Of a stretch of DNA of 64,000 nucleotides, positions 3,507 through 64,000 are shown in pieces. Under the pieces are notes generated by a model, which was not told the DNA's origin, searched no databases, and worked only from the letters and a program-made list of their open reading frames with translations. This DNA comes from Somniosus microcephalus. Its lineage: Eukaryota. Within the stretch, counting starts at the first letter, position 1, and each line of letters opens with the position of its first letter. The translations under genes and the position numbers were made by a program. The stretch is taken from NCBI GenBank assembly GCA_052327205.1, contig CM126203.1, positions 313,658,001 to 313,722,000 of the forward strand. Direction: 5' to 3'.

Positions 3507-6260
3507 ATAGAAACATAGAAGATAGGAGCAGGAGTAGGCCACTTGGCACCTCGAGCCTGTTCCGCTATTTAATGAGATCATGACTGATCATCTAAATTCA
3601 GTACCCTGTCCCTGCATTCTCCCCATATCCCTTAATCCCTTTAGCCTTAAGAAATATATCTAACTCCTTCTTGAATATATTTAATGAATTGGCCTCAACT
3701 GCCTTGTGTGGTAGAGAATTCCACAGGTTCACCACTCTCTGGGTGAAGAAATTCCTCCTCATCTCAGTCCAAAATGGCTTACCCCTTATCCTTAGATTGT
3801 GACCCCTGGTTCTGGACTGCCCTGCCATCGGGAACATCCTTCCTGCATCTAGTCTGTCTAGTCCTGTTAGAATTTTATAAGTTTCAATGAGATCCCCTCT
3901 CATTCTTCTAAACTTTAACAAATATAAGCCTAATCGACCCAATCTCTCCTCATATGTCATTCCTGCCATCCCAGGTATCAGTCTGGTGAATCTTCGCTGC
4001 ACTCTCTCCATGGCAAGAACATCCTTCATCATGTAAGGTGACCAAAACTGCACACAATACTCAAGGTGTGGTCTCACCAAGGCCCTGTATAACTGCAGCA
4101 AGATATCCTTGCTCCTGTACTCAAATCCTCTCGCTATGAATGTCAACATACCATTTGCCTTCTTAACCGCCTGCTGCACCTGCATGCTTACCTTCAGCGA
4201 CTGGTGCACAAGGACACCCAGGCCTCGTTGCACTTCCCCTTTTCCCAATCTATTGCCGTTCAGATAATAATCTGTCTTCCTATTTTTGCCACTGAAGTGG
4301 ATAACCTCGCATTTATCCACATTATACTGCATTTGCCATGCATCTGCCCAATCACCCAACCTGTTCAATTCATGCTGGAGTTTCTCTGCATCATCCTCAC
4401 AGCACACACGCCCACCCAGCTTTGTGTCATCTGAAAACTTGGAGATATTACATCTAGTTCCCTCATCTAGATCATTTAAATATATTGTGAATAGCTGGGG
4501 TCCTAGCACCGATCCCTGTGGTACCCCACTAGTCACTGCATGCTACTCGGAAAAAGACCCGTTTATTCTAACTCTTTGCTTCCTGTCTGCCAACCTGTTC
4601 TCTATCCAAGACAATACCTTACCCCCAATCCCGTGTGCTTTAACTTTGCACGCTAATCTCTTATGCGGGACCTTATCAAAAGCCTTCTGAAAGTCCAAAT
4701 ACATCACATCCACTGGTTCTCCCTTATCTATTCTACCAATTACATCATCCAAAAATTCCAGTAGATTAGTCAAGCATGATTTACCTTTTGTAAATCCATG
4801 TTGACATTGTCCGATCCTGTCACTGTTTTCCTAGTGCTCTGCTATTACATCTTTTATAAAGGACTCTAGCATTTTCCCCACTACCGATGTCAGGCTTACC
4901 GGTCTATAATTCCCCGTTTTCTCTCTACCACCTTTTTTAAATAGTGGGGTTATATTAGCTATCCTCCAATCCATGTGAATTGTTCCAGAGTCTACAGAAT
5001 TTTGGAAGATGACCAGCAATGCATCTACTATTTCTAGGGCCACTTCCTTAAGTACCCTAGGATGTAGATTATCAGGCCCATGGGATTTATCGGCCTTCAA
5101 TCCCATCAATTTCCTAACACCATTTCCCTACAAATACTGATTTCATTCAATTCCTCCCTCTCATTAGACCTTATGTTCCCCGACATCTCTGGGAGGTTAT
5201 TTGTGTCCTCCTTTGTAAAGACAGAACCAAAGTATGTATTTAATTGGTCTGCCATTTCTTTGTTCTCCATTATAAATTTCCCTGATTCTGGCTGCAAGGG
5301 GCCTACGCTTGACATCACCAATCTTTTTCTCTTCACATATCTATAGAAGCTTTTACAGTCAGTTTTTATGTTCCCTGAAAGCTTACTCTCATAATCTATT
5401 TTCCCCCTCTTAATTAATCCCTTTGTCCTCCTTTGCTGAATCCTAAACTGCTCCCAATCCTCAGGTTTGCTGCTTTTCTGGCCAAATTATCTGTCCTCTC
5501 CTTGGATCTTATGCTATCCCTAATTTCCCTTGTTAGGCACGGTTGAATCACCTTTTTTGTTTTATTTTTATGCCAAACAGGGATGAACAAATTCTGTAGT
5601 TCATCCATGCATCTTTAAATGTTTGCCACTGCCTATCTACCGTCAACCCTTTAAGTAACGTTCCCCAATCCATCCTAGCCAACTCATGCCTCATACCATC
5701 GTAGTTTCCTTTATTTAAATTCAGGAACCTAGTCTCTGAGTCAAATACTTCACTCCCCATTTTAATGAAGAATTCTATCATATAATGATCGCTCCTCCCC
5801 AAGGGGCCTCGCACAACAAGATTGCTAATTAATCATTTCTCATTACATAATACCCAGTCTAAGATGGCCTGATCACTAGTTGGTTCCTCAAAATGTTGGT
5901 CCAGGAAACCATCCCGTATACACTCTAGGAATTCCTCCTCCACAGTATTGTTACTAATTTGGTTAGTCCCATCTATATGTAGATTAAAGTCACCCATGAT
6001 AAATGCTGTGCCCTTTTTGCACGTGTCTCTAATTTCCCGTTTAATGCCATTCCCAACCTCAGCATTACTGTTTGGGGGTCTGTATACAACTCCCACTAAT
6101 GTTTTCTGCCCCTTGGTATTTCTCAGCTCTGCCCATAGAGATTCCACATCATCAGAGCTAATATCCTTCCTTACTATTGTGTTAATCTCCTCTTTAACCA
6201 GCAATGCTACCCCACCTCCTTTTCCTTTTTTCCTGTCCTTCCTGAATATTGAATACCCCT
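3507..6260 (-). mobile_element. 5'-truncated CR1 LINE (partial APE endonuclease + RT, disrupted ORF2), inserted antisense into an older CR1
   Basis: ORFs with VGVVYRPPNS/MGDFN (APE), NYRPVSLTS, YLDFQKAFDKVPH, GVPQGSVLGP, SKFSDDTKL; TTCTATG-type tail at about 3507-3520; GGTC repeated at both junctions. Confidence 0.95.
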
Positions 6261-9181: not shown

Positions 9182-9445
9182 TGTTATGTTCATTAATAAA
9201 TAGACATTCTTATTATGAACACAGCTAGCTTTTGCTAGACCTTTTATTGAGCACATGTGGACTAGGTACTATATCTGTGGAGGCTTCCATCTTGACTGTT
9301 GCCTTGTGGGTAGCCTAGCCTCATGGGTAATGTAGTCTTAATATATATATATGGCTGGGTAGTGTAGTCTTATACATACAGCTATATACAGCTCTACGGC
9401 TCCACCTAGTGTCCACTATAGAATGACATGTTATTGATCATTACA
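9182..9445 (-). repeat. 3' LTR of element 1
   Basis: TGTTATG...TTACA on the plus strand, direct repeat of 11497-11760, adjacent to the polypurine tract. Confidence 0.95.
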
Positions 9446-9639
9446 TCCCCCTTTCTTTGAGGTTTAACAAAATCAATATCAATCAACTTTCAAGAAAACA
9501 ATAAAGATAATATCAGTAACACTTTTGTTAGTGCTCTATAAACATAAACATTTTCAAAACAGTCAACACATTTTCAAAGCTTTACATTGTACTCAAAGAT
9601 TAAGTCTATCAGGCTTTTTTACTTCACGTGTGGATCTTC

Positions 9640-11451
9640 TCAACACGGGTGAGTCTGATGTGTCTTCATGAGATTGTTCTGGCGGTGAATGACAAGATGC
9701 AGTTGCAGCATTGTCATCAATTTGGTCTTGAATACATCGGGGTCTCCTTGCGATCTTTGCTTGGAGAGGGTTTCAGTGTTTCCTTCACTCTTCATGCCAT
9801 AACTCTCAATATAGTCAATGCACTCTCGAAAAACTGCTGGCAGCTGGATCCCATCATACAGCATAGTCCTCTCAGCAGCCTCGGCTAATGGAACACCAAA
9901 GATTGGCCTGAGGGAAGAAGGAGTATCCACCGGAACTGTTTCCTGCTCTGGTGCAGGCTTCTTCTTTTTCTTTTTCTCTTTCCACTGCTTAACAACATCT
10001 GCTGCGGTTATATCTTTGGACTTTTTCTCCTTGTGTTTTTCCTCTTTGTGCTTTTCTTCCTTTGGCTTCTCTTTGACCTTAAAGTCTTTTTCTTTCTTCT
10101 TGGAGAAACTAGGCTTTTTGAAGACATGGATACCCTTTGGCCTTTTCATCCTTGATGGGGTCTCTGCTTCATCACCTGAGTCATCTGGTCTGCTTATGGC
10201 ACAGTTTATATGGTAGACTCTCTTGACCAGGTCTAAGTCTTCACAAGCTTTGTCACCTAGTATCGAATCAAGTCTTTCAGCCACAACAGAAAACATGAGA
10301 TGATGCACTTTGTCTTTGACTGTCACTTTAAGTCTGCATACACCTAAGCTATCTATTTTCTGTCCATTATAGTCCTTCAGTAGTACTGACTTTTTCTGTA
10401 TTTTGGGCTTTTCTTTCATATTGTTAATGTCACTCATACTGATTAAGTTTGCTTTTGCCCCAGTGTCAAGTTTCAATGTAACTAATGCTCCATTTATCTG
10501 CAGTGGGATCATCCATTTGTCCTCTTTTACTGCATTAACTTTATGTTCAGCATTGTCTATTTCGGAGGGCTGCACATTTTCTGTATCTTTTTTGATATCG
10601 TCACATGACACCATTCCTACAATAAATGTCTCACTTAAATCAGTGTCCTCAATCACATTAACTCGTTGCCCTTTCGTCGTTTTTACTTTTGAAAAGTATT
10701 GTTTGGCAAAGTGATTCTTTCCATTACATTTTGTGCACATTTTTCCAAACGCTGGGCATTGTCTTAACTGGTGTTTGTAACCACAGCGTTTACAATTAAA
10801 AATTTCATCCTCCGATTGCTTTTCATTTCTGTTCTGCCCATGTTTCTTCCCCTTGTAGGACACAGCACCGACAGCAGCATTATCACTCATTACATTCGCA
10901 TCATTATTGATTTCACTGAAAGTCTTCGCGTGCTTTCGAGCTAGCTCGCTGGCTTGGCATATTTTCACCGCATTTTCCAAATTTAGTTCGGTTTCTCTCA
11001 ACAGACGTTCCCTGACTTTTTTATCATGAATACCAAACACAATCTGGTCACGAATCATGGATGCTTTGAGCTCAGAGAAATTACATGTCTGTGCTTTCAG
11101 TTTCAGATCAGTTATAAAGCTATCAAAAGTCTCATTTTGCTGCTGTGTCTGAGAACAGAAGATGTATCTTTCATAGGTCTCATTCTTTTTGGGAGAGCAA
11201 TGTGCATCAAATTTTTTTAGCACATCTTCTAATTTTTCTCTGTTCTCCACTAGATTAAATACAAATGTATTAAATACCTCTATCACCTGTGGGCCTGTAA
11301 CCGTAAGCAGCAATGCTATCTTCCTTGCATCTGGCTTCGTACCGAATCCGATGGCTGCAATGTAGAGTTCGAATTGTTGTTTAAAAATCCGCCAATTGTA
11401 GTCGACATTTCCCTCGAGATTCAAATGCTCTGGTGGCTTCAAATTCTCCAT
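9640..11451 (-). CDS. Chimeric Gag-aspartic protease-RALBP1 fragment protein (about 603 aa from the ATG at 11451)
   Basis: Gypsy Gag (PPEHLNLEGN, MIRDQIVFGI, CKRCGYKH and CTKCNGKNHFAKQY knuckles), protease LDTGAKANL...ILG, then RALBP1-like segment in frame. The ORF-track start at 11508 lies inside the LTR, so MENLKPP is the likelier start. Confidence 0.88.
   Translation of the reverse strand: MENLKPPEHLNLEGNVDYNWRIFKQQFELYIAAIGFGTKPDARKIALLLTVTGPQVIEVFNTFVFNLVENREKLEDVLKKFDAHCSPKKNETYERYIFCSQTQQQNETFDSFITDLKLKAQTCNFSELKASMIRDQIVFGIHDKKVRERLLRETELNLENAVKICQASELARKHAKTFSEINNDANVMSDNAAVGAVSYKGKKHGQNRNEKQSEDEIFNCKRCGYKHQLRQCPAFGKMCTKCNGKNHFAKQYFSKVKTTKGQRVNVIEDTDLSETFIVGMVSCDDIKKDTENVQPSEIDNAEHKVNAVKEDKWMIPLQINGALVTLKLDTGAKANLISMSDINNMKEKPKIQKKSVLLKDYNGQKIDSLGVCRLKVTVKDKVHHLMFSVVAERLDSILGDKACEDLDLVKRVYHINCAISRPDDSGDEAETPSRMKRPKGIHVFKKPSFSKKKEKDFKVKEKPKEEKHKEEKHKEKKSKDITAADVVKQWKEKKKKKKPAPEQETVPVDTPSSLRPIFGVPLAEAAERTMLYDGIQLPAVFRECIDYIESYGMKSEGNTETLSKQRSQGDPDVFKTKLMTMLQLHLVIHRQNNLMKTHQTHPC
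9781..10182 (-). other. RALBP1: Captured host coding fragment: RALBP1/RLIP76 lysine-rich region plus the start of the RhoGAP domain
   Basis: SGDEAETPSRMKRPKGIHVFKKPSFSKKKEKDFKVKEKPKEEKHKEEKHKEKKSKDITAADVVKQWKEKKKKKKP...PIFGVPLAEAAERTMLYDGIQLPAVFRECIDYIESYGMKSEG closely matches vertebrate RALBP1 as recalled. Confidence 0.93.
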
Positions 11452-11482
11452 GTCGCTTTTCACAATTTTCAGCAGATCTTCA

Positions 11483-11496
11483 CCACCCTGGTACCA
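11483..11496 (-). promoter_or_regulatory. Primer binding site of element 1, tRNA-Leu(TAA)-like
   Basis: TGGTACCAGGGTGG directly after the 5' LTR; complement of the tRNA-Leu(TAA) 3' end is TGGTACCAGGAGTGG (one-base gap). Confidence 0.75.
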
Positions 11497-11760
11497 TATT
11501 ATGTTCATTAATAACTAGACATTTTTATTATGAACACAGCTAGCTTTTGCTAGACCTTTTATTGAGCACATGTGGACTAGGTACTGTATCTGTGGAGGCT
11601 TCCATCTTGACTGTTGCCTTGTGGGTAACCTAGCCTCATGGGTAATGTAGTCTTAATATATATATATGGCTGGGTAGTGTAGTCTTATACATACAGCTAT
11701 ATACAGCTCTACGGCTCCACCTAGTGTCCACTATAGAATGACATGTTATTGATTATTACA
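11497..11760 (-). repeat. 5' LTR of element 1
   Basis: Direct repeat of 9182-9445; inner terminal dinucleotide mutated (plus-strand TA instead of TG). Confidence 0.95.
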
Positions 11761-18535: not shown

Positions 18536-20338
18536 TGTTCAGTCTGTGCTTCCACCCTTGTGCATCTTTGAAGAACAATTTCCAATTCACAATTTTAAAA
18601 CCTAAAGCCTACAAGGCCTCAAAGACTACAAACAATGGCAAGAATTTGGCAGACCGTTCATCTGTGGCTTATAATTATGATATCAATAAAAATCACACAA
18701 GCGACGGGACACAATAAGCAGTCAATTTAAGCACTCACGTACAGCAGCAGTACTCAGAGCAACATTATTATTCACACCAGTAAGAGCCTTCTAGAACTGC
18801 ACAGTTATGCAAATTTAGCTTATTGGCTTAATCTCACTGACTACACGGTTTCTGTACAGCAGCAGTATAGTAGCTTCATTATCTCATTACAAAGCAACAG
18901 TTGCATTATTACAATATGCTTTTGTAGAGGACAAAAGGAAGTAATTTTGATCAAATAGGGTATCAGTGGAAGGCCCATATGAAAAAAGAGACAGTGAAGA
19001 TGGGAAAATAATGAGTAAGCATAGCAGAACAAAAGGTCTTTTGGGCTCTTGCTTCAAAGCCACAGTGATGGACCCATGGGCTTTGCGGGACAGTTTTGCA
19101 CAATTGATTTTCAATGACATAATTAGTTGTCATATCTTATTTCTGTAAAATTATGTTTCAAAAGTCCTAAAAGAAAACTCATGGATAAGTTAATGACACC
19201 GTGTAGAAATATATGCTGCAAAGGTCCCAGATTCAGTCGCCAATCTGATTTGAATTAGTTCTTCTCAAATGAGATAATTGTAGGCCTGCTAGGGTTGGTT
19301 TCAGCAACCCGGGAGTAAGGATGGGAACAAAGTCAGCTAAGATTCCCTCTTCTGATGCTACCTAGGGACTCCTGGCAGAAAGAGTGCACACATGAACATC
19401 AGGGAAGGTCAGGGTTGGGCTCGGGTCACGGTGCCTCACACAGTATGCCGATACTTCATGTCCACGCTCATTTGGGCAAGATAATGGAGCAGCGTCAGCA
19501 CCTGTGGAATGATATCCTGGCAAAAGTCAGGATGGGAAGGGAGAATAAAGTCTGTTGGGGTGGGAATTCTACAAAATAGCCATGCTATTACAACAGCAGT
19601 CAAACACACGTGTAGGGAAAAGGAATGTAATCTCACAGTCAGCTTCTAACATTGCAAACTTTAGATTGTCGCTTGTTAGCCAGCATTTTGTTTCCTCACT
19701 TTATGCAAAGCGTACACTGCATTGCTGGAGTTACTCTGCGATTCAAATTGAATCAGCTATTTATTCAAAATATTTTCCAAGTAATGCAATGGGGTTGCCA
19801 CATCTCATTTACAGTGTATTTATGGCAGGGGCACAGGGTCATCGCAAACAGCAACTGTGCACCTATACAGTTACAGCAGAGTCTCTATAAAACGGCAGCA
19901 GGGACAATGTAAAATGGATGTCAAAGTAATAAACAGGTTATGAACACAATGTTTTTTACTATGGAGTAGAACTTTTGTGGAGTTCTCCTGATCTTCCACC
20001 ATAACTCTTCCTTGGTTCCTACAGATAAATCTAAGGACCGACTACAGGTCCCAATTGCCCATTAAGCTAGCACCTCACAGCATCATGCATCACTCACTCT
20101 TTCCAAAGCAAGGAACGGCACAGATATATCCTCCGCAGAGGATTTAGATAGTCAGTTTGAGGAGGGTGCACCAGGTGTTACACAGGTCAGAAGTAGGAGG
20201 GAGCAGGTGACGGTGGGAGAGGAGGAATCTGATGGCCAGAGGGCTAGCTCCAATCTTTCAGAACTGTGGAGAACAGGGATTCGCACCTCAGGGGACCCAA
20301 GCCTAAAAGGATACTATTTGAGCATCATTGTTCCTTGC

Positions 20339-20595
20339 TGTTAAATCTGTGAGTTGTTCAAGTAATTAATACTCAGACTTAATCAGTAACAATAAAACAG
20401 GTCTTTACTGGTTGGAGGTAGGGACTATACGTAGGTCTTTACTTCATGCCCACAGGTGGGAACTGAGGGGAGATCAGTACCCACAGTACTATTTATACCC
20501 CTGTGGCCAGGAGTGGTACTGCGTATCACTACGCCCAACAAGTAGTGCAGTCCTGTCCATAGGTTCAAAGTAGCACACATATTACATACACAACA
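20339..20595 (-). repeat. 3' LTR of element 2
   Basis: Direct repeat of 23689-23945; minus strand has GGGGTATAAATA (TATA-like) and AGTAAA (polyA-signal-like). Confidence 0.97.
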
Positions 20596-20911
20596 TTCCT
20601 CCCTTCCTAGCTTTACAGTCATCTCCCCATTTAACATAACGTAATAACATATATACATATATAACTTCAGGTTTACATAACAGAATAACATAGATACATA
20701 GATAACTTCATGTCAAAACAGATCACAGATTCAGTCTCTGCGGAAAACAGTTCACAGATTCAATCTCTGTGGTGGAGTCGGTTTACGTTGCTGGAGTGAC
20801 TCATTCAATAGTCCTTCCATGGATTTAACAGTTTGAACTTCCGAACTGAATTGGCTCCGTTCGGAGGGACCACGTGTGTGATCTGGTAGAGGTGATAATG
20901 GTTCAGATGGG

Positions 20912-21180
20912 TCATCTTCTGTTTTTACTTTTCCTTTTCTGCTTCTTGGAGACTCTCTGGGCTCCATTGTCAGCTGCCACAGCTGCCAGCTGCATGCGCA
21001 GTTCCTCCTTCTCTTCCTCCTGTTTCCGTCGTAGAGCCAGCTTCTCCCGATGTTCCGTAGACTTTTGGTGCTCCTCCATGATTTCTGCACTTTGGGAGTC
21101 GAAGTTACAAGCTGGGCAGGACAGGACATCGTAATATTCGGTGTCGTCCACCAGGTCATAGTAATATTCGGTGTCGTCCT
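20912..21180 (-). other. DNAJC21: Captured host fragment: DNAJC21-like C2H2 zinc finger with acidic lead-in and basic tail
   Basis: [46 protein letters not shown]...[12 protein letters not shown] vs recalled [46 protein letters not shown]...QKLSKKQKKKKQK. Confidence 0.75.
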
Positions 21181-23143
21181 GAGCTAGACCAGTGAGAGGG
21201 TCGTCTATTTCCTCCATACCCAGCTGGACGTTAGCCAGCTCTTGTTCCAAATCCAGACATCTTTCCTGAAGAGACTTCTTCATGTGTACCTCTGCATCCA
21301 GCTTTTTCTGGGCTTTCAGCAAGTCGTTTACTAGTGACCTCATTTGTGATTTTAATACTTCAACTTCCTTTGGAGATTGATTGATCGGACTATGCAATCC
21401 CTCTACCGGAGCAGCTGTTTCAGCGGTCTGTTGTTCTACGTTGACGTGAGTCAGCGTACTTTTGGCATCCAAGGGCTGCTCTGTTGCAGTCATCTCAGTC
21501 TGTGTTGCCACCTCAGCTCTTCCAATAACCTTTGAGAGCTCCGAACCCCTTTCGTTTGAATATTGAAGTTCGTGTTCAAGTTTTTCCCATTTCAGAGTCC
21601 TGTCCTTCAGCATATGCAGGAGTTGGCTGACCGTTAACTCCTCTGACATCAGACGTTTTGTGTGCTCCTGTTCCATTTTCTCCATCAGCTGCTTCTGTTG
21701 TCTTTCCAGATTCTCCAACTCTATGTCAAAGAACTCTTTCGTTGCATTCAACTCTTGCTCACAACGGCGAAGCATTTGTTCTAATTGCTGTTGTAGTTTG
21801 AAATGGAGTTGAGTTCGAGCCCGGTGTCCCTCAGAAATGGGCACATCAGTAGACTTGCCAGACTCAGAATCCACAGTTAAACTATGTTGTTGTTGCTCAG
21901 TGGAATTCTGTGCTGAAACTTTGTCTTTTGCACCTGAGTTGGGCTTACCATCATCCGTTCCAGAGTCTGGGCCGACTATCTTCACCGAGTTCTCACTCGT
22001 TATTGTTTGTAGGAAATGCCAGTCCATATTCATTTTCCTAATCCACTCCCGTCCTAGTAGTGGAGGACCTCCTTCAGATATCACATATAAGTCCATTATT
22101 TGACTGTCTTCGCCCTTGTGGACCACTGCAACCTCTATTTTCCCGATGGGGTACACTCTTTGCCCCGTGTATGTTTCCAATATAATCCCCGTATCCTGTA
22201 GGGGAATATGTTGGAATAACTTTCCGTAATCTTTCTTATTTATGACCGTCAATGCCGATCCAGTGTCCAATTCCAGTTTTACTTGGACTCCTTCTATCTG
22301 AAGAGTGACCCAAATTGTCTGGAGGTCTGCACCCTTACCAGCGTTGAGTACTCTTAAGCTAGCCAGTTCATTACTGCTAGCGTCTGAATCGGAGTCCTGT
22401 TCGGTCACCTTGTGTACCTTTGCGTATTTTCCTTGCGGTGACTTCTTGTTGCTGGTCTTCTTCGCTGACCTGCATACTCTAGCTATATGTCCAAGCCTAC
22501 CACAAGTTCTACATTCTTGGTTTTTAAACCAACACTGGTTCTGATCATGCGTTGTCTTTCCACAACGATAACATTTGCCAGAACTCACACCCAATTTGTG
22601 TGCACTGAGCTCCGGTGACCGTAGCTGCATTACTGCCGTGCCTCTCGCTGCGGCTTCGTGTGCTGCTGCCATAGTGACCGCCTTCTCAAGCGTCAGCTCA
22701 TTCTCCGCGAGCAGTCGCTTTTGTGTATCCTGTTTAAATAAACCACACACAAATTTGTCTCGAAGTGCCTCTGTCAGTCCCGTTCCAAACTGGCAATATT
22801 TCGCTAATTTACGCAATTCCAGCAAATAATCAGCATTGCTTTCATGCTGTAGCTGCCTTCTGTCGTAAAATTTAAATCGTTCCGCTAGCATCAGCGGCGT
22901 GGGGTTTAGATGATCTTTCAGGACAGTAACAATCTCATCGAACGTCTTATCCGCCGGTTCATCTGGTGATAACAGGTGTTTCAATTGCCCGTATGTCTTC
23001 GCACCCATTAAATTTAATAATGTTAGAGCTTTATCTTGGTCACGAATTTTATTGGCCTTACAATAATTTTTTACTCTTTCAACATATATGGCCCAATCTT
23101 CGAGGTCACTATCAAAGGTGCTAATATTCCCATGTTTAGGCAT
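20912..23143 (-). CDS. Chimeric Gag-protease-STK10/OPTN/DNAJC21 fragment polyprotein (743 aa from the ATG at 23143)
   Basis: Gag ([30 protein letters not shown], two CCHC knuckles), protease LDTGSALT...LLGREW, then about 360 aa of non-Gypsy sequence with no stop. The ORF-track start at 23263 is a GTG. Confidence 0.92.
21220..21646 (-). other. OPTN: Captured host fragment: optineurin central coiled coil
   Basis: [14 protein letters not shown]...EKLE...RAEVATQTE...[41 protein letters not shown] vs recalled [14 protein letters not shown]...ERLE...RSEIETQTE...[41 protein letters not shown]. Confidence 0.85.
21650..21832 (-). other. STK10: Captured host fragment: STK10 (LOK)/SLK PKK coiled coil
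   Basis: [57 protein letters not shown] vs recalled STK10 [57 protein letters not shown]; paralog SLK not excluded. Confidence 0.82.
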
Positions 23144-23677
23144 TGTAGATTTGCAATTTCTCAGATTTTTTTTTTTTACTGCTATCCAAGATGGCGGCTT
23201 CCCGCTCTTGCCGTCGTCCTCCGCCCACAAAATGGCGGTTTTCCCGCGCTTGGCGGTCTTCACCCGTCCCCCAACGCCGTCTCCCTTCAGCCCCCGAGTG
23301 CGGCCCTTATCTTCGCCGCGATCGCCCGAGTGCGGCCCTTATCAGCGGATGCGATCGCTGGATCGCGAAGCGGCTCTTATCAGGAGATGCGATTGCTCCG
23401 TTGAAACGCCTCCCGCTCGAAGCGGCTCTCGCGCCCTATTCCTCCAGCTCCCCCAGCCCCGTTCGTGCGGCCAACGCGGTCGACTGCCTGTCGCGTCGCT
23501 GCCCGGCTCAGACAACGGCTTACCCACCACCAAGCTGGAGAAGAAGCTGACGGTCGCCGATGGAGGCTCCGAGGTCAGGATGTCTTCCAGTGGGGTGGAG
23601 AGGGTGGAAACCTCTCTGCAACGTCCTGGCTGTGGACGAAGCTGCCGTGGAGTGACTGCCGCAGGGTCCGAATCAGA

Positions 23678-23687
23678 CTCGTCGCCA
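23678..23687 (-). promoter_or_regulatory. Primer binding site of element 2, tRNA-Ser(GCT)-like
   Basis: TGGCGACGAG one base after the 5' LTR, complementary to ...CTCGTCGCCA. Confidence 0.8.
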
Positions 23688-23688
23688 G

Positions 23689-23945
23689 TGTTAAATCTGT
23701 GAGTTGTTCAAGTAATTAATACTCAGACTTAATCAGTAACAATAAAACAGGTCTTTACTGGTTGGAGGTAGGGACTATACGTAGGTCTTTACTTCATGCC
23801 CACAGGCGGGAACTGAGGGGAGATCAGTACCCACAGTACTATTTATACCCCTATGGCCAGGAGTGGTACTGCGTATCACTACGCCCAACAAGTAGTGCAG
23901 TCCTGTCCATAGGTTCAAAGTAGCACACATATTACATACACAACA
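23689..23945 (-). repeat. 5' LTR of element 2
   Basis: Direct repeat of 20339-20595. Confidence 0.97.
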
Positions 23946-24144
23946 CTTGCGGTCAGTAGAGAGAGTGCCAAAGACCTGGCAAAGTCTGGTAATGACTGTC
24001 GAGAAGTCTGTGCAGTCATCCATGATCACTGAGCACAGCTGCAGTTCAGCACAGAGCACGTGAATGCGAATGGGTGACCAGGTTTGGTCAAATTCTGGGC
24101 TGAGGCCGTCTCTATGTAAAGGGGCGGCAGCTTAGTTAGACCAT

Positions 24145-32629: not shown

Positions 32630-35296
32630 TGTCAAGGATTGAAAGCTTCAGCAACTCTTGGACACCAATGCACCTCCAGAATCTTCTTTCCCTTCACTTT
32701 CCTCTGACCCCATTCTTTCTTCCAATCTCACCTCCTGCCGTGTTTTCACTATCCCCTCTGACCTTCCCTCTCTGACCCAGAACGATCAGTCCTCAGCAAA
32801 GGCCTGAGCTTCATCCCCTTACGCCCCCACCTCAATGAATTTCGAGCTCGGCACGGCGCTAAGCTCTTTTTCCGTCGCCTTCATTTCCATGCCCACTTCT
32901 TTGGCCAGGAGTCTTCCCCCGCACAGCTGACCCTTTCTCCCATTTTCTGAATTCTTGTTCCACCTGGACCCCTCCCTCTGGCCTCTTAACCTCTCTTGAT
33001 CTTTTCATTGCTAACTGCCGGCGTGACATCGGTCATCTCAATTTCTCTGCTCCCCTCACTCACTCCAACCTACCTCCCTCTGAACTTGCGGCACTCCATT
33101 CTCTCAGATCCAACCCCAACTTTGCCATTAAACCTGCTGACAAGGGTGGCGCTGTTGTTGTTTGGCGAACCGACCTCTACCTAGCGGAGGCTAAACGCCA
33201 ACTCTCCGACACCTCCTCCTACCTCCCCCTGGAGCATGACCCCACTACCGAACATCAAGCCACCGTTTCCAAGACTGTCACTGATCTCATCTCTTCTGGA
33301 GATCTTCCCTCCACGGCCGCCAACCTCATAGTTCCCCAACCCCACACAGCCCGCATCTACCTCCTTCTCAAGATCCACAAACAGGACTGGCCCGGTAGAC
33401 CCATCGTTTCAGCCTGTTCTTGCCCCATGGAACTTAGCTCTTCCTATCTCGACTCTATTTTTTCTCCCTTTGTCCAGTCTCTTCCCACTTACATCTGTGA
33501 CTCTTCCGACATCCTCCACCACTTTAACAGTTTCCAGTTTCCTGGTCCCAACCATCTCCTTTTCACTATGGACGTCCAATCCCTCTACACCTCCATCCCC
33601 CACCAGGATGGGCTGAGGGCGCTCCACTTCTTCCTTGAACAGAGGCCCAACCAGTCCCCATCCACCACCACCCTCCTTTGCCTGGCTGGACATGTTCTCA
33701 CGTTGAACAACTTCTCCTTTGACTCCACTCACTTCCTCCAAATTAAAGGTGTTGCTGTGGGGACCCGCATGGGTCCTAGCTATGCCTGCCTTTTCGTGGG
33801 ATATGTGGAACATTCGTTGTTCCAGTTCTACTCAGGTCCCCTCCCTCACCTCTTTTTCTGGTACGTTGATGACTGTATCGGTGCCATTTCCTGCTCTTGC
33901 CCTGAACTAGAAAATGTGATTCACTTTGCCTCCAATTTCCACCCTTCCCTCACCTTCACATGGTCCATCTCTGACTCTTCCCTTCCTCGATTTCTCTGTC
34001 TCCATCTCTGGGGATAGGTTATTGACTAACATTCACTACAAGCCCACTGACTCCCACAGCTACCTGGACTACACTTCCTCCCACCCCGCTTCCTGTAAGG
34101 ACTCTATTCCATTCTCCCAGTTTCTCCGTCTCCGCCGCATCTGCTCTGACGATGCCACCTTCCATACCAGTGCTTCCGACATGTCTTCCTTTATCCTCAA
34201 CTGAGGATTCCCCTCTGCCATGGTTGACATGGCCCTTGACCGTGTCCATTCTATTTCCCGCACTTCTGCTCTCACCACTGCCCCTCCCTCCCAGAACCAT
34301 GATAGGGTTCCCCTTGTCCTCACCTTTCACCCCATCAGCCTCCACATTCAACGGATCATCCTCCGCAATTTCCGCCACCTCCAGTGTGATCCCACCACCA
34401 AACACATCTTCCCCTCACCTCCCCTTTCAGCATTCTAAATTGACCACTCCCTCCGCGACACCCTGGTCCACTCCTCTATCACTCCCAACACCCCCTTCGT
34501 CCGGCCCCCTCCTGTGCAAGCGCAAGAGATGCAACACATGCTCTTTTATCTCCTCCCTTCCCACTGTCCAGGGCCCCAAACACCCCTTCCAGGTGAAACA
34601 GCGATTTACTTGTACTTCTTGCAATTTAGTATACCATATTCGCTGCTCATGATGCAGTCTCCACTACATTGGGGAGACCAAACGCAGATTGGGTGACCGC
34701 TTTGTGGAACACCTCCGTTCAGTCCGTAAGGGTGACCCCGAGCTTTCGGTCGCCTGTCACTTTAATTCTCCGCTCCACTCCCACTCTGATCTCTCGGTCC
34801 TCGGCCTCTTACACTGTTCCAATGAAGCTCAACGTAAGCTCTTGGAACAGCACCTCATCTTTCGATTAGGCAATTTACAGCCTTCTGTACTCAACATCGA
34901 GTTTGACAATTTCAGACCATAACCTCTGCTCCTATCATTTTTTGTTTTCTCTCTCACAAGGCAGCTGTTGATCATTCTGCCAGTGCCATTTACACTTCAT
35001 CTAGAGTCATCTTTTGTTTCTTAACTTGTCCCATTACCATCTTCTTTTGCCTTGCACCATCATCCCTTTTGTCTCGTAATCTCTCCTGCCTTCCACCCTA
35101 TCACAGACCTTCACTTTTGTTCTTTCCTCCTCTCCCCCCTCTCCCTGCCCCTACACTTGCTTAAAAACCTGTTCCATCTCCAACTTTTTCCAGTTCTGAT
35201 GAAGGATCATCGACCTGAAGCGTTAACTCTGTTTCTCTCTCCACAAATGCTGCCTGACCTGCTGAGTATTTCCAGCATTTTCTGTTTTTATTTCAG
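32630..35296 (+). mobile_element. Penelope-like retroelement (RT + GIY-YIG endonuclease), disrupted
   Basis: KPADKGG, TMDVQSLYTSIPH, QIKGVAVGTRMGPSYA, WYVDD, FLD, YKPTDSHSYL, NLVYHIRC..YIGETKRRLGDRFVEH; 3' tail with hammerhead-like motif. Confidence 0.92.
35192..35228 (+). ncRNA. Minimal type I hammerhead ribozyme motif in the Penelope tail (core mutated GAAA>GAAG)
   Basis: AGTT-CTGATGA-AGGATCATCGACCT-GAAG-CG-TT-AACT. Confidence 0.55.
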
Positions 35297-45583: not shown

Positions 45584-48404
45584 ATTGGATGTAATTGGAA
45601 TTAAGGAGACATGGCTTCAGGGTGACCAAGGCTGGGAATTCAATATCCCGGGGTATTCAATATTCAGGAAGGACAGGCAAAAAGGAAAAGGAGGTGGGGT
45701 AGCATTGCTGGTTAAAGAGGAGATTAACACAATAGTAAGGAACGATATTAGCTCTGATGATGTGGAATCTGTATGGGTAGGGCTGAGAAATACCAAGGGG
45801 CAGAAAACGTTAGTGGGAGTTGTACAGACCCCCAAACAGTAATGCTGAGGTTGGGGATGGCATTAAATGGGAAATTAGAGATGCGTGCAATAAGGGCACA
45901 GCAGTTATCGTGGGTGATTTTAATCTACATATAGATTGGGCTAACCAAATTAGTAACAATACTGTGGAGGAGGAATTCCTAGAGTGTATACGGGATGGTT
46001 TCCTGGACCAATATGTCGAGGAACTAACTAGACATCAGACCATCTTAGACTGGGTATTAGGTAATGAGAAAGGATTAATTAGCAATCTTGTTGTGCGAGG
46101 CCCCTTGGGTCGGAGCGATCATAATATGATAGAATTCTTCATTAAGATGGAGAGTGAAGTAGTTGACTCAGAGACTAGGGTCCTGAATTTAAATAAAGGA
46201 AACTACGATGGTATGAGGCGCAAGTTGGCTGGGATGGATTGGGGAACGTTACTTAAAGGGTTGACGGTGGATAGGCAATGGCAAACATTTAAAGATCACA
46301 TGGATGAACAATAGAATTTGTTCATCCCTGTTTGGCATAAAAATAAAACAAAAAAAGTGACTCAACCGTGGCTAACAAGGGAAATTAGGGATAGCATAAG
46401 ATCCAAGGAGAGGACATATCAATTGGCCAGAAAAAGCAGCAAACCTGAGGATTGGGAGCAGTTTAGGATTCAGCAAAGGAGGACAAAGGGATGAATTAAG
46501 AGGAGGAAAATAGAACATGAGAGTAAGCTTGCAGGGAACATAAAAACTGAATGTAAAAGCTTCTATAGATATGTGAAGAGAAAAAGATTGGTGAAGTCAA
46601 GCGTAGGTCCCTTGCAGTCAGAATCAGGGGAATTTATAATGGGTAACAAAGAAATGGCTTCCAATTAAATACATACTTTGGTTTTGTCTTCACAAAGGAG
46701 GACACAAATAACCTCCCAGAGATGTCGGGGAACATAGGGTCTAATGAGAGGGAGGAATTGAACGAAATCAGTATTTGTAGGGAAATGTTGTTAGGGAAAT
46801 TGATGGCATTGAAGGCCGATAAATCCCCAGGGCCTGATAATCTACATCCTAGGGTACTTAAGGAAGTGGCCCTAGAAATAGTAGATGCATTGCTGGTCAT
46901 CTTCCAAAATTCACTGGAATCTGGAACAGTACCCATGGCTTGGAGGGTAGCTAATGTTACCCACTATTCAAAAAAGGTGGTAGAGAGAAAACGGGGAATT
47001 ATAGACTGGTAAGCCTGACATCGGTAGTAGGGAAAATGCTAGAGTCCATTATAAAAGATGTAATAGCAGAGCACTTGGAAAACAGTGACAGGATTGGACA
47101 AAGTCAACATGGATTTACCAAAGGTAAATCATGCTTGACTAATCTACTGGAATTTTTTGAGGATGTAACTGGTAGAATAGATAAGGGAGAACCAGTGGAT
47201 GTGGTGTATTTGGACTTTCAGAAGGCTTTCGATAAGGTCCCGCATAAGAGATTGGTGTGCAAAGTTAAAGCACATGGGATTGGGGGTAAGGTACTGACTT
47301 GGATAGAGAACTGGTTGGCAGGCAGGAAGCAAAGAGTTAGAATAAACGGGTCTTTTTCCGAGTGGCAGGCAGTGACTAGTGGGGTACCACAGGGATCGGT
47401 GCTAGGACCCCAGCTATTCACAATATATATTAATGATCTAGATGAGGGAACTAGATGTAATATCTCCAAGTTTGCAGACGACACAAAGCTGGGTGGGCAC
47501 GTGTGCTGTGAGGAGGATGCAGAGAAACTCCAGTATGATTTGGACAGGTTGGGTGATTGGGCAGATGCATGGCAGATGCAGTATAATGTGGGTAAATGCG
47601 AGGGTATCCACTTTGGTGGCAAAAACAGGAAGACAGATTATTATCTGAATGGCAATAGATTGGAAAAGGGGAAGTGCAACGAGACCTGGGTGTCCTTGTG
47701 CACCAGTCGCTGAAGGTAAGCATGCAGGTGCAGCAGGTGGTTAAGAAGGCAAATGGTATGTTGGCCTTCATAGTGAGAGGATTCGAGGAAAGGAGCAAGG
47801 ATGTCTTGTTGCAGTTGTACAGGGTCTTGGTGAGACCACACCTTGAGTATTGTGTGCAGTTTTGGTCGCCTTATCTGAGGAAGGATGTTCTTGCCATGGA
47901 GGGAGTGCAGCGAAGATTCACCGGACTGATACCTGGGATGGCAGGAATGACGTATGAAGAGAGATTGGGTCGATTAGGCTTATATTCGCTAGAGTTTAGA
48001 AGAATGAGAGGGGATCTCATTGAAACTTATAAAATTCTAACAGGACTAGACAGACTAGATGCAGGAAGGATGTTCCCGATAGCGGGGGAGTCCAGAACCA
48101 GGGGTCACAGTCTAAGGATAAGGGTTAAGCCATTTAGGACTGAGATGAGGAGGAATTTCTTCACCCAGAGAGATGTGAACCTGTGGAATTCTCTACCACA
48201 GACGGCAGTTGAGCCCAACTTATTAAATATATTCAATAAGGAGTTGGATATATTTCTTAAGGCTAAAGGGATCAAGGGATATGGGGAGAAAGCAGGGACA
48301 GGGTACTGAATTTGGATGATCAGCCATGATCTCATTAAATGGCTGAAGAGGCTCGAGGGGCCGAATGGCCTACTCCTGCTCCTATCCTCTATGTTTGCAT
48401 GTTT
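45584..48404 (+). mobile_element. 5'-truncated CR1 LINE, same family as 3507-6260
   Basis: APE (IKETWL, YRPPNS, VGDFN, SDHN) and RT (GVPQGSVLGP, FADD); 7-bp TSD CTTTGTA at 45577-45583 and 48405-48411. Confidence 0.95.
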
Positions 48405-50262
48405 CTTTGTATCATCAGCAAACATGGATATGGTACACTCGGTCCCTTCATCTAGCTCATTAATATAGGATGTAAATAGCTGAGGCCCAAGCACTGATCG
48501 TTGCGGCACGCCACTAGTTACAGCCTGCCAACATGAAAAAGACCCGTTTATCCCTACGCTCTGTTTTCTGTCCGTTAACCAATCCTCTATGCATGCTACT
48601 AAATTACCCCCAATCCCATGAGCCCTTATCTTGTGTAATAACCTTTTATGTGGCACCTTATCGAATGCCTTTTGGTAATCCAAATACACTACATCCACTG
48701 GTTCCCCTTAATCTACCCTGCTAGTTACATCCTCAAAAAATTCTAACAAATTTGTCAAACACCATTTCCCTTTCATAAAACCATGTTGACTCTGCCTAAT
48801 CATGTTATGATTTTCTAAGTGCCCTGATACAATTTCCTTAACAATGGATTCCAGCATTTTACCAATGACTGATATCAGGCTCACTGGTCTGTTATTCCCT
48901 GTTTTCTCTTTTCCTCCTTTCTTGAATAGCGGTGTTACATTTGCTGCCTTCCAATCCGCTCGATCTAGGGAATTTTGGAAGATCAAAACCAATGTATCCA
49001 CTATCTCTGCAGCCACCTCTTTTAGAACCCTAGGATGTAGGCCATCAGGTCCAGGGGATTTGTTGGCTTTTAGTCCCAATAATTTGTCAAGTACTTTTTC
49101 TCTACTGATATTAATTACGTTAAGTTCCTCACCCTCAGTTCCCCACCATTTTTGGTATGCTTTTTGTGTCTTCTACTACGAAGACAGATACAAAATATTT
49201 GTTTAATGTTTCTGCCATTTCCTTATTACCCATAATAATTTCTCCTGTCTCAGCCTCTAAGGGACCAACGTTTACTTTTGCTACTCTTTTCTTTTTTACA
49301 TACTAGCAGAAGCTCTTGCGATCTGTTTTTATATTTCTTGCTCGCTTTCTCTCATTCCATTTTTTCCCCTCTTTCTCAATTTTTTGGTCATCCTTTGCTG
49401 GTTTCTGAAACTCTCCCAATCCTCAGGCTTACTACTATTCGTTGCAACATTATAAACTTCTTCTTTCAATCTAATGCTATCCTTAACTTCTTTAGTTAGC
49501 CACGGATGGATCACTTTCCCTGTGGAGTTTTTGTTTCTCAATGGAATGTATTTTTGTTGAGAATTAGGAAATATTTCTTTAAATGCTAGCTACTGCTTAT
49601 CTACCGGCATACCTGTTAATCTATTTTTCCAATCAACCTTAGCCAACTCGCCCCTCATACCTATGTAATTGGCTTTATTTAAGTTTAAGACTCTAGTTTC
49701 AGACTTAGGCAAGTCATTCTCAAAATTAACGTGAAATTCTATCATATTATGATCACTCTGCCCCAGAGGATCCTTTGCTATGAGATTGCTAATTAACCCT
49801 GTCTCATTACAAAATACAAGATCTAAAATAGCCTGTTCCCTGGTTGGTTCCATGATGTATTGTTCTAGGAAACTGTCCCAAATGCATTCCATGAACTCGT
49901 CCTCCAGACTACCTTTGCCAATTTGATTTGTCCAGTCTATATGAAGATTAAAGTCCCCCATGGTTATTGCATTACCTTTGTTTCAAGCTCCTAATATTTC
50001 TTGATTCTGTCCAACGGTATAGCTACTGTTAGGGGGCCTATATACTACGCCCATCAGTGTTTTTTGCCCCTTGTTATTCCTTCTCTCCACCCATACTGAT
50101 TATTCTTTCTGATCTCCCAAGCCGAGATCCTTTCTCTCTACTGCCCTCATGTCATCCTTTATTATCAGGGCTATCTCCCCTCCTTTTCTATTCTGCCTCT
50201 CTTTTCAAAACGTCAAGTACTCTGGAACATTTAGTTCCCAACCTTGGTCACCTTGCAACTAC

Positions 50263-56977: not shown

Positions 56978-59900
56978 TGTCTTGTTTTGCACACTTCGTA
57001 CAAAAATAATAAATTGCAGGACAACGGAGTATTACAGTTCAAACTCTTTTATGAAGCATCAGGTCTGTGATGTTTCTCATACAGCACCGTGTGGCCAAGA
57101 TGGAGTTAGGCCCCTGGGTCTTCCAAAACAATAGTAGTCCTTACAGATGCCTGCAGGCCAATGACAACTCAGCATGTGATCACATGTGAATATAATAGGT
57201 ATTCCTTACAGATGCCTGCGGGCCAATGATAATTCAATATGCAAATGTTACATCCCCTTTCTTTTAAAAGAAAAATGTTATGCATTACTTTTGAACCTTT
57301 CTTCTACATAATGTTCTCAGTAGCATCAACATATAAGTAAACTCAACATTTAACTAGCACTGAAAACATCTCAACGTTTCAATAACGATGTACAGTTTTT
57401 TTTTAGGGCAGCGATCCACCTACACCCTTTGACAGTTCACAAGTCAAGGATAACTCTAGGCTTGACCTCTCGTCCTGACCTTGTGTGGTATGGAACTGAG
57501 CATGCTCCTGAATCGGTCAACAAATCAGGTTCAGGTTTAGGTTCAGGTAAGTATGATGTGTTTTGTGTATTGCTCTGTTCATCACACTCTGTTGAACTGA
57601 TCCTCTCGTCGGAATGACGGTGTTGTTCCTTGGTGTTCAGGAGGTGCCTGCGATTGCGGCGGTACACCTGTCCTTCTGGGGTGCGGACGTGATACGATCA
57701 CTCAGTGTCAGCTGGCTGGATGGCGACTGCTGGCTTCCAGTAGTCATGCTCCTGGATTCTGATGGATTCTCCATTGTGCAGCGACGGCAGTAGTCTAGCT
57801 GACCTGTCATAGTATCTCTTTTGGTGTTGCTGTCTCTGTACATGTTTTGCATGCACTTGCTTGCAGCCGATGACCTCTGCCTGCAGCTGCTGGTTGGTGC
57901 TTGAGCGAAGTCTGCGGCTCATCAACAGCTGTGCTGGTGACTTGAAGTTGTCAACCAGAGTGTTGCGGTACTCAAGGCGACTGATGTAGGGGCCTCTTTT
58001 GTCCGCTTTGGCTTTGTCCATGAGTGTTTTTGCAATCTGGACAGTTTTTTCAGCAAGGCCATTACTTTGAGGGTAATGTGGGCTTGATGTGACATGTGTG
58101 AAATCCCATGCCTTGGCAAACGACTCGAACTCTTTTGATTTGTATTGGGGGCCATTGTCTGAGACTAAAGTCTCTACCATGCCATGCCTGGCAAAGGCTG
58201 CCTTTAGCTTGTGGATCACAGCTGCAAATGTGGTGCTGTGAAGCTTGTCCAGTTCAAAAAATCTGCTGTAGTAATCAACAGTCACTATGTAGTCCTCGTT
58301 GTTCCATGTGAACAGATCCGTTGCTACGACCTGCCAGGGCCTGTCTGGGATACGGTGAGGTATCATGGGCTCTTTGACATTTGATGGGTGGCGTTCTAGA
58401 CAAATGGAACATTTTCCGACAATGTCCTCAATGTCTTTGCACATTCCAGGCCAAAACATAATGTCACGTGCTCTTTGTTTGCATTTTTCCATGCCCATAT
58501 GTCCAGCATGAATTTTTGTCAACATCTCTTCTCTGAGACTGGTAGGAATGATGATTTTCTCCCCTTTGAAGACAAGTCTGTTGATTTGTGACAGTTTGTC
58601 TCTGTGGTTCCAGAATTCAGATATGCTCTGAGGGCATTTCCTCCTTTCCTCAGGCCATCCTTCATGTATGACTTTGCTCAGCAGTGTGAGTTGTGCATCT
58701 TTCTCTGTTTCCGATCAGATCGCCTTCAGTTTTGAGTCACTCACAGGTAAGCTGTTGTACTCCATGAGCACCTGCACATCCATGCCTTCACTGAGGCTGC
58801 TGTCCTGGTAGCTAAGAGACTTTCTGGCGAGCGTGTCTGCGACAGGAATGTCTTTGCCTGGATGGTGAATGATTGTGAAGTCGTACTTCTGTAGCTGAAG
58901 GATCATTCTCTGTAGCCTTGGTGGGGCTGCGGCTAGTGGTTTCCTCATGATTGACTCGAGGGGCTTGTGGTCGGATTCCACAATGACTTGTCAGCCATAG
59001 ACGTACTGGTGGAAATGCTTACATCCAAACAGAATTGCATATAGCTCTTTCTCGATTTGAGCATAGTTGATTTCACTGTCTGTGAGAGATCTGGAAGCGT
59101 AGCCGATGGGCTTTCCTTCTTGCAATAATACTGCGCCTAGTCCATACTTTGACGCGTCCACTTGTAGTCTGAGCTCTTTGTTGGGGTTGAAGTAGGCAAG
59201 AACTGGTCCTGGTTCTCTGGTGATTAGGTCTTTCATTTTCTGAAATGCTGTGTCATGTTGTTTGTCCCACAGGAACTCATTGGATCATTTGAGCAACTGA
59301 CACATGGGTGCGTTGATTTCGGAGAGGCTCGGGGCAAACTTGGCTAAGTAGTTAACCATGCCTAGTACTGTCTCTAGCTCTGCGCGGTTCTTCGGCCACT
59401 CCATCTTCTTGATGGCGGAGATTTCCTCTGGATCCGGCTTAATGCCATCAGTTGAGAATCGATGCCTGAAATAACTGATCTCGGTGGATCCGATTATGCT
59501 TTTCTCGGGGTTGAGCCGGATACCTTTCTCCCGTGATCTTTGTAGCATCGCACAGAAGTTCCTGTCATGTTCCTCTCTAATCCTGCCATAGATGAGGATG
59601 TCGTCTACAATTGCGACTACTCCGTCCAGGCCTTCATAGGTTTCGTCGATCTTCCGCTGGAATTCATCCTGAGCTGAGATAAGACCAAATGGTAAACGCA
59701 GAAATCGGTAGCATCCAAATGGTGTGTTGAACGTTAGCTTAGATGACTCTTCCGTGAGCTTGATAGTCCAGTATCCTGATCGTGCGTCCATTACACTGAA
59801 GTAACGTGCTCCCACTAGCTTGGGTGTGATGTCATCTAGCGTTGGTAGAGGGTAGTGAGGGCGTTTGATAGCCTTGTTCAAATCTCTGGGGTCGAGACAG

Positions 59901-62700: not shown

Positions 62701-62802
62701 AAGGATATGCTCCTGCCCTCTTTCACACAGTCAAGAAGAAAATCCTCCCCTGAGTTTCAGCAGGTTATTCACCCCTCGGGGAGCATCAGGACCAAACGTG
62801 AT

Positions 62803-64000
62803 CCTGCCACCCAGCTCCTGCCACCAACTCCTGCCACTCAGCTCCTGCCACCCAGCTCCTGCCACCCAGCTCCTGCCACTTAATTCTTGCCACCTAGTTC
62901 CTGCCACCCAGCTCCTGCCACTTAATTCTTGCCACCTAGTTCCTGCCACCTAGCTCCTACCACCCAGCTCCTGCCACCTAGCTCCTACCACCCAGCTCCT
63001 GCCACCTAGCTCCTGCCACCCAGCTCCTGCCGCCTAGCTCCTACCACTCAGCTCCTGCCACCCAGTTCCTGCCACCTAGCTCCTACCACCCAGCTCCTGC
63101 CACCTAGCTCCTACCACCCAGCTCCTGCCACCCAGCTCCTACCACCTAGCTCCTGCCGCCTAGCTCCTACCACCTAGCTCCTGCCGCCTAGCTCCTACCA
63201 CCTAGCTCCTACCACCCAGCTCCTACCACCCAGCTCCTACCACCTAGCTCCTGCCGCCTAGCTCCTGCCACCCAGCTCCTGCCGCCTAGCTCCTACCACC
63301 CAGCTCCTGCCACCTAGCTCCTACCACCCAGCTCCTACCACCCAGCTCCTGCCACCTAGCTCCTGCCGCCTAGCTCCTACCACCCAGCTCCTACCACCTA
63401 GCTCCTACCACCTAGCTCCTACCACCCAGCTCCTGCCGCCTAGCTCCTACCACCCAGCTCCTACCACCCAGCTCCTGCCACCTAGCTCCTACCACCCAGC
63501 TCCTGCCGCCTAGCTCCTACCACCCAGCTCCTACCACCCAGCTCCTGCCACCTAGCTCCTACCACCCAGCTCCTGCCACCTAGCTCCTACCACCCAGCTC
63601 CTACCACCCAGCTCCTGCCACCTAGCTCCTACCACCCAGCTCCTGCCGCCTAGCTCCTACCACCCAGCTCCTGCCACCCAGCTCCTGCCACCCAGCTCCT
63701 ACCACCCAGCTCCTGCCACCCAGCTCCTGCCACCCAGCTCCTACCACCCAGCTCCTGCCACCTAGTTCCTGCCACCCAGCTCCTGCCACCCAGCTCCTGC
63801 CACCCAGCTCCTGCCACCTAGCTCCTACCACCCAGCTCCTGCCACCTAGCTCCTGCCACCTAGCTCCTACCACCCAGCTCCTGCCGCCTAGCTCCTACCA
63901 CCCAGCTCCTGCCACCCAGCTCCTGCCACCCAGCTCCTGCCACCTAGCTCCTGCCACCTAGCTCCTACCACCCAGCTCCTGCCACCCAGCTCCTGCCACC
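62803..64000. repeat. 14-bp minisatellite, consensus GCTCCTRCCRCCYA, running off the window end
   Basis: About 85 tandem units read directly. Confidence 0.95.

Follow-up and report, generated by a model that had tools for sequence, protein, structure and literature searches.

The window, a 64,000-nt stretch of shark DNA, holds on its reverse strand a helper-dependent Ty3/Gypsy long terminal repeat (LTR) retrotransposon of about 3.6 kb in which spliced host RNA stands in place of pol. One stop-free frame of 808 codons (20912–23338, reverse strand, as are all stranded features of the element) runs in the order Gag-protease, STK10, optineurin (OPTN), DNAJC21, and in it the OPTN piece is joined to two other host fragments; the LTR element has a very high copy number. 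The element is bounded by two 257-bp LTRs with TG...CA ends and two mismatches between them (5′ LTR, 23689–23945; 3′ LTR, 20339–20595), and by a 5-bp target-site duplication, CTTGC (23946–23950 on the 5′ side and 20334–20338 on the 3′ side). A primer-binding-site-like motif, TGGCGACGAGTC, lies at 23671–23687 and is common to an autonomous family, family X, described below; a polypurine tract occupies 20596–20608. LTRs, duplication, primer-binding-site-like motif and polypurine tract all agree with a Ty3/Gypsy assignment. Gag and aspartic protease are encoded at 22000–23143, with a start ATG at 23143, two CCHC knuckles at 22573 and 22513 and the protease motif LDTG at 22270; they match gag-pol relatives at E 1e-121, with weak Pfam scores below the cut-off. 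Neither the frame nor a Pfam search revealed reverse transcriptase (RT), RNase H or integrase in the window element, which is accordingly classed as non-autonomous.

The cargo begins with two pieces of STK10 exon 9 split by an in-frame deletion (21828–21998), followed by a piece of STK10 exons 11–12 (21651–21832; exon junction near 21745) that carries the PKK coiled coil (PF12474). Next come OPTN coding exons 5 (part), 6, 7 and 8 (part) at 21207–21658, with exon junctions near 21547, 21376 and 21260 and a 21-nt in-frame deletion. The DNAJC21 piece (20921–21206) encodes a degenerate C2H2 finger, a charged helix and a basic tail, and contains a polymorphic 30-nt duplication. The stop codon of the fused frame (20912–20914) falls 316 nt before the 3′ LTR. 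Behind it, at 20800–20920, lie the end of STK10 exon 8 and the start of exon 9, downstream of exons 11–12 and out of frame with the main open reading frame (ORF), and then a remnant of an integrase C-terminal tail (..PPQRLNL; 20752–20799) that is stop-free and in frame with this STK10 remnant. The identity of the DNAJC21 piece comes from a search with residues 710–808, in which three of 134 candidates matched (best E 6e-4). The host DNAJC21 gene was not located with a family search, whose matches were left without assignment, with a 76-residue query or with the whole white-shark protein, a query that was swamped by element copies when run against the genome. Sequence comparison of the cargo with the PDB gave no matches.

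Other repeats share the window. Another Gag-protease element, belonging to a different Gypsy type (about 9183–11759, reverse strand), has a RALBP1 piece where pol would be. This piece is 94% identical to one exon at the RALBP1 locus (G000:C7), and its junction has 2,773 matches; the 5′ join is in frame, the 3′ join is out of frame, with the ORF closing some 200 nt short of the 3′ LTR. The RALBP1 cargo lies inside one host exon and is therefore uninformative on splicing or circles. One element with RALBP1 cargo has landed in a RALBP1 intron (within L097–L104 and L056–L067). At 57698–61239 (reverse strand) is a broken Gypsy of autonomous type, whose Gag-protease, RT and integrase pieces are split among different frames. 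Non-LTR reverse transcriptase fragments, presumably CR1-like and Penelope-like, lie at 3598–4542, 32863–34652 and 46955–48707, and a tandem array with a 14-bp unit, periods of 28, 42 and 70 and 90% matches runs from 62802 to 64000 and off the window.

Origin of the optineurin piece

A first-pass annotation had drawn attention to an optineurin-like, intron-free stretch at 21220–21646. The stretch is real, and its true edges (21207 and 21658) lie 12–13 nt further out on each side. Residues 561–711 of the fused frame match shark optineurins, the best being that of a sawshark (E 4e-50, 69% identity), and a query with residues 500–808 returned shark optineurins first and STK10 after them. The piece corresponds to about OPTN residues 223–384, the central coiled-coil region. 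We located the host OPTN gene at about 85.872–85.906 Mb of G000:C17 through 14 exon matches in Pfam searches. Four consecutive host exons match the piece at 92, 80, 87 and 91% nucleotide identity and abut one another in the element; the three introns between them in the host (552, 2,017 and 2,469 bp, all GT-AG) are missing. Three introns have been removed exactly, and the OPTN piece therefore originates from processed RNA. The annotation's proposal of capture from processed mRNA is thereby borne out, the fragment crossing three introns of the host gene rather than lying within one exon.

Also as annotated, the piece is devoid of the TBK1-binding N terminus, the LIR and the UBAN domain, all of which lie outside residues 223–384. 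In the sawshark protein the NEMO/TBK1-binding region spans residues 44–111, CC2-LZ/UBAN 497–590 and the zinc finger 641–666; the DSFVEI motif, which we take to be the LIR, is at about 180–186. The host OPTN exons that match the cargo (G000:C17, about 85,884,780–85,885,380) each show one extra base in a short base run, relative to element copies and shark proteins. These extra bases are probably assembly errors, made when repeat-derived reads confused polishing, and are possibly real damage.

Copy number and transcription

A 26-base motif over the STK10–OPTN join has 3,939 exact matches genome-wide, against none for a control. Among 150 scored matches, 145 are identical across 142 cargo residues and 130 sit in open frames of at least 730 codons. 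The LTR pairs of 20 whole copies are identical in 13 cases and differ by one mismatch in six and by two in one; these copies were chosen for an identical cargo protein, which biases the sample to young insertions. No A-tract was found at the cargo ends in the window element or in the fetched copies. Near-identical sequence to 20339–23688 occurs in three organisms at 0.68–0.85 of sampled words and in two more at 0.21–0.37.

The family is transcribed. In RNA run X20 (organism B), 11,849 of 16.65 million records fall on the element, and the 20-fold strand bias across the cargo is consistent with sense transcription if the library is of the standard stranded kind; reads are not assignable to single copies. 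Sixteen reads of this run, with two start sites, skip 465 nt (21220–21686), an in-frame loss of the whole OPTN piece. A second run, X21, was set aside as evidence of transcription: its 11,238 records of 14.4 million are nearly strand-neutral (ratio 1.5) and could stem from intronic RNA or DNA carry-over.

STK10 entered as a probable circle

A STK10 query taken from outside the window's cargo returned 91 matches, most of them intron-less, that define an ancestral family B. Behind Gag-protease it carries STK10 from mid-exon 9 through exons 10, 11 and 12; exon 8 and the beginning of exon 9 follow, and the integrase tail comes last. The scrambled join fuses the exon 12 donor (GAG|gt) to the exon 8 acceptor (ag|CAC). 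This back-splice join is present at 38–40 of 40 bases in all 14 loci, representing 11 distinct copies, and has 826 exact matches genome-wide. In these surviving relatives STK10 stands in place of pol, both of its joins being in frame. The back-splice junction itself is gone from the window copy, which keeps the scrambled STK10 order behind its stop codon. In the host gene (G000:C8), the intron after the 131-nt exon 10 starts with GC and is a GC-AG intron. STK10 introns also harbour two decayed relatives of the helper lineage (within L097–L104 and L056–L067).

The founding template was, on this sequence evidence, very probably a circular RNA of STK10 exons 8–12 copied for exactly one turn. These exons sum to 1,245 nt, that is, 415 stop-free codons. 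Entry and exit use the same motif, and the two lie 1,245 nt apart in three of five measurable copies and 1,233 and 1,239 nt apart in the others, two copies with in-frame deletions. The 5′ junction carries a 10-nt word common to the STK10 circle and the pol linker of family X; it is one of just 3 matches to family X among the 1,245 10-mers of the circle. A linear exon-repeat or trans-spliced transcript, or extra template jumps on ordinary mRNA, could also have yielded a scrambled order, and the junction alone cannot separate a circle from an exon-repeat RNA, a caveat equally voiced in the description of mouse circRNA-derived pseudogenes (PMC4897178). Against such a linear source, which we regard as quite improbable, the junction coincides with exact splice sites on either side, the STK10 content of the relatives is confined to exons 8–12, and the host region holds one ordered exon set. 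Moreover, recurrence of the same motif 1,245 nt apart at entry and exit is predicted by a circle and not by a linear template.

Stages of the lineage

We ordered the later stages from nested shared junctions, not from a rooted tree. Two copies (L108 and L134) represent a stage with a deletion in STK10 and with DNAJC21 inserted into the exon-8 arc, the back-splice still intact. In others (L105–107, 109, 110 and 135–140), OPTN exons 3–8, including DDSFVEIRM, occupy the place of the back-splice segment without interrupting the frame, which continues to the tail. This ancestral OPTN capture comprises six exons in ordinary order with both ends inside exons, which fits linear or circular RNA alike. 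OPTN was first captured with its LIR, which was lost later; the LIR-coding motif occurs within one mismatch at 1,151 places, host gene included, and in the window family the LIR part was lost at a shared word. Shared words measure 9 nt at the STK10–OPTN join of the ancestor and are shorter at other joins.

Two further branches carry other coiled coils. Family D (L141–L146; 1,339 matches) belongs to the same lineage and has about 229 codons of another coiled-coil gene in place of the LIR-bearing part, all in a single open frame. The Atlas gave this insert no name, its first match scoring 0.94 with low recognition. The OPTN piece of family D is much decayed, with helix-breaking changes that wreck the coiled coil. 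In another branch, L134 carries at 2257–2900 a myosin-tail-like insert (Atlas 0.96, PF01576) within the STK10 coil, with both joins in frame and one stop in the L134 copy.

Family X was reached through the loose ends of RNA reads. It has 1,625 matches, and all 12 loci examined continue into RT. Its pol follows the protease, and three of four whole copies have about 1,320 open codons and LTRs that are 98–99% alike. In a Gag-protease tree, from which family D is absent, the window family groups with X (100/100) apart from its cargo ancestors (98/98). Between the window family and those ancestors, dS is 0.53–0.90 over Gag-protease and 0.14–0.19 over the cargo. The grouping with X and this contrast in dS therefore indicate that the front half of the element, Gag-protease, was swapped. 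The LTRs of the window element and of X agree over only about 92 nt at 75–80%. We infer that family X is the helper that supplies RT and integrase. A motif for the helper directly behind the window family's protease was found in two variant copies of the window family only.

Selection on the fused frame

Gag-protease is constrained. Its dN/dS is 0.17–0.32 against the ancestors and 0.32–0.41 against X, and changes fell in 6 of 67 conserved and 63 of 177 variable columns (p=1.5e-5). The cargo behaves differently. OPTN changes between the window family and its ancestor hit conserved columns (6 of 47) as readily as variable ones (14 of 97; p=1), with similar outcomes for two other reference copies. 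STK10 changes (5 of 37 against 3 of 20 columns) likewise reveal no site-specific constraint. Measured against the host exons, OPTN has a dN/dS of 0.48 (0.26–0.97) without and 0.64 (0.34–1.29) with transition bias. STK10 in family D has a dN/dS of 0.31–0.51 with intervals below 1 (0.47–0.51 with transition correction), and pure neutrality of STK10 is therefore disfavoured. For DNAJC21, dN/dS is 1.4–2.7, with wide intervals from a short, rearranged alignment. Because cargo dN/dS is below 1 in most comparisons and some intervals exclude 1, some protein-level constraint on the cargo is possible.

The reading frame itself is preserved. The window family has accumulated 79 base changes and family D 181–188, and neither has gained a stop (simulated chance 0.025 and at most 0.0013, respectively). 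Seven of the eight distinct indels inside the ORF of 20 copies are multiples of three; many 1-nt indels lie outside the ORF. Across all families, the native frame is kept at 19 of 21 junctions and indels, as tallied by eye and with several of the relatives found by protein searches, which favour open frames (P=6e-4 at a null of 0.55). That null allows for the tendency of words common to two coding sequences to fall in frame, about 0.4–0.6 of the time: 39–62%, not 33%, in comparisons with at least 11 matches. Both exceptions are the 3′-most join, where the stop is left 200–316 nt from the LTR. It could be argued that neither cargo nor frame is selected at all, that in-frame joins follow from shared words and that the elements spread by drift because they are short. 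The in-frame excess of coding shared words speaks for this, as does the window copy taken alone, which keeps frame at 6 of its 7 junctions (P=0.10 at 0.55). Set against the lack of stops in both families and the multiples of three among ORF indels, full neutrality is already hard to hold, and we give it very little credence. Selection appears instead to act on Gag-protease and on translation up to near the 3′ LTR, not on OPTN binding surfaces.

The first-pass annotation had further proposed that the fragment is a decoy of an autophagy and innate-immunity adaptor. In that scenario the OPTN piece would bind host optineurin, either after release by the protease or while still attached to Gag, and would dampen the autophagy or TBK1 signalling aimed at the particles. 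The absence of every effector part from the piece, the transcription of the family and the kept frame are in keeping with it. A predicted pairing with sawshark OPTN 223–384 scored 0.45 against 0.00 for the best control (partner pLDDT 61; contact agreement between runs of at least 64%); this signal is weak, on a scale where 5 of 78 solved complexes and all four passing mismatches score 0.60 or under and where close relatives of a true partner pass by likeness. Both derived families (3,939 and 1,339 matches) are without the LIR part that 1,151 places keep, and its loss could reflect selection against an LC3-binding motif on Gag. The constraint test goes the other way: conserved OPTN columns were not spared, and dN/dS of OPTN reaches 0.64–1.04 in family D and 0.88–1.16 in another branch. 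STK10-only and RALBP1-only families (826 and 2,773 matches) spread without any OPTN, and the 16 reads described above have lost the whole piece in frame. The decoy is poorly supported by these data, and we consider it highly unlikely.

A less specific role would make the fused tail a generic protein, a charged coiled coil and basic cluster on Gag-protease whose host source is unimportant and which might aid particle assembly with helper proteins, RNA binding or reaching the nucleus. All six cargos (STK10, OPTN, DNAJC21, RALBP1, the myosin-tail-like insert and the unnamed coiled coil) are charged or coiled-coil, cargo dN/dS is 0.5–0.65, and a K/R-rich tail ends every version of the window lineage. 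Yet 8-nt shared words between the STK10 coil and OPTN are 3–5 times denser than with kinase exons or pol, and coil-to-coil capture is therefore explained without selection. Purine-rich RNA, moreover, gives K/R in any frame, and the OPTN part of family D has acquired helix-breaking changes. We judge a generic tail to be unlikely, though less so than the decoy.

Discussion

The reading that we favour, and think somewhat better than even, is that a helper-dependent Gypsy carries OPTN and the rest of its cargo as passengers, kept in frame for the benefit of the element's own RNA. Surviving relatives show a history of five steps. Pol was first exchanged for STK10 exons 8–12 in back-spliced order, the equivalent of exactly one turn of a 1,245-nt circle. 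DNAJC21 then entered the STK10 exon-8 arc, and OPTN exons 3–8, with the LIR, took the place of the back-splice segment. Next, the LIR part and more of STK10 were deleted, and finally Gag-protease gave way to that of autonomous family X. At each step the helper's reverse transcriptase probably jumped from one co-packaged RNA to another where the two had a short word in common. Degradation by RNase H of template that the enzyme had already passed would explain why copying of the circle ended about 10 nt after one full turn.

Keeping the frame open to near the 3′ LTR would most likely let the RNA avoid the nonsense-mediated decay that a long 3′ UTR invites, or else favour the packaging of translated RNA. 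There is precedent in unspliced retroviral RNA with a long 3′ UTR, described as sensitive to nonsense-mediated decay (PMC2925335). The repeated capture of coiled-coil genes may reflect their purine-rich codons, which have more short words in common, often in frame. For circles in retroelement particles, a 2026 preprint on HIV-1 offers indirect support (10.64898/2026.01.21.700838).

More speculatively, the window element may exemplify a shark class of 'cargo-for-pol' Gypsy elements, in which stable packaged circular host RNAs, copied for one turn, replace pol. A translated filler, refreshed by coiled-coil RNAs and by helper Gag-protease, would enable defective elements to become more numerous than their helper and to enlarge the genome; the LC3-binding motif would have been purged because it sent Gag to autophagy. 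We put this forward as a tentative proposal that is rather more apt to fail than to hold as a whole.

The mechanism of circRNA retrotransposition was left open by Dong et al. in 2016 (PMC4897178). The shark family bears the footprint expected of an LTR reverse transcriptase acting on a circle, namely one turn, an exact junction and shared words, and this makes the question directly testable. It also presents repeated rounds of LTR-mediated exon shuffling in a vertebrate whose genome still contains the intermediates, at copy numbers in the thousands. The family has implications for shark genome size, for the retention of long open frames by defective elements and for false gene-family expansions (OPTN, STK10, DNAJC21 and RALBP1) in shark annotation and read mapping.

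Comparison with known systems

The closest relatives of the Gag-protease part are K02A2.6-like Ty3/Gypsy elements of fishes, single-frame gag-pol proteins with which it is 35–50% identical. Their layout is that of family X; the window element differs from them in having no RT, RNase H or integrase. Compared with optineurin, the piece has no NEMO domain, LIR, UBAN or zinc finger, drifts in sequence and is set between the STK10 and DNAJC21 pieces. Acutely transforming retroviruses form gag-onc fusions that depend on a helper, with host coding sequence in frame behind gag and in place of pol. Unlike them, the window element has no env, is not a retrovirus, spreads in the germ line and gives no sign of selection for the cargo protein's own function.

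Literature searches of open-licence PMC and bioRxiv listings returned no report of the window family or of shark Gag-protease–cargo elements. LTR-mediated capture and circRNA-derived pseudogenes are both already known; for their combination in a multi-thousand-copy vertebrate family with intermediates, these searches turned up no precedent.

The window element has the features of LTR-mediated retrocopies: spliced mRNA within an ORF, shared words at the joins, re-amplification and no poly(A). In such retrocopies, including maize Bs1, an intron-less mRNA likewise replaces part of an internal ORF, the joins have short shared words, both LTRs are kept, and several parent genes are combined in an element that spreads non-autonomously (as described in PMC5131818). 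Bs1 exists in 1–5 copies and is partly out of frame according to that account, whereas the shark family numbers thousands. The shark family further differs from Bs1 in carrying its cargo in native frame with Gag-protease, and in its circular founder, surviving intermediates and Gag-protease swap; the word 'circular' is absent from the main text of PMC5131818.

The STK10-bearing ancestors, for their part, have two features of circRNA-derived copies, a non-colinear junction at exact splice sites and content confined to the exons of the circle. The mouse circRFWD2 copies likewise have a non-colinear back-splice junction, no poly(A) tail, LTR sequence alongside and many copies, and may themselves lie inside an LTR element (PMC4897178). 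There, 33 high-confidence copies are treated as pseudogenes and their mechanism is called mysterious. The shark circle, by comparison, lies precisely in place of pol, makes a full turn and is in frame at both ends, in an element that kept on spreading and acquired further genes.
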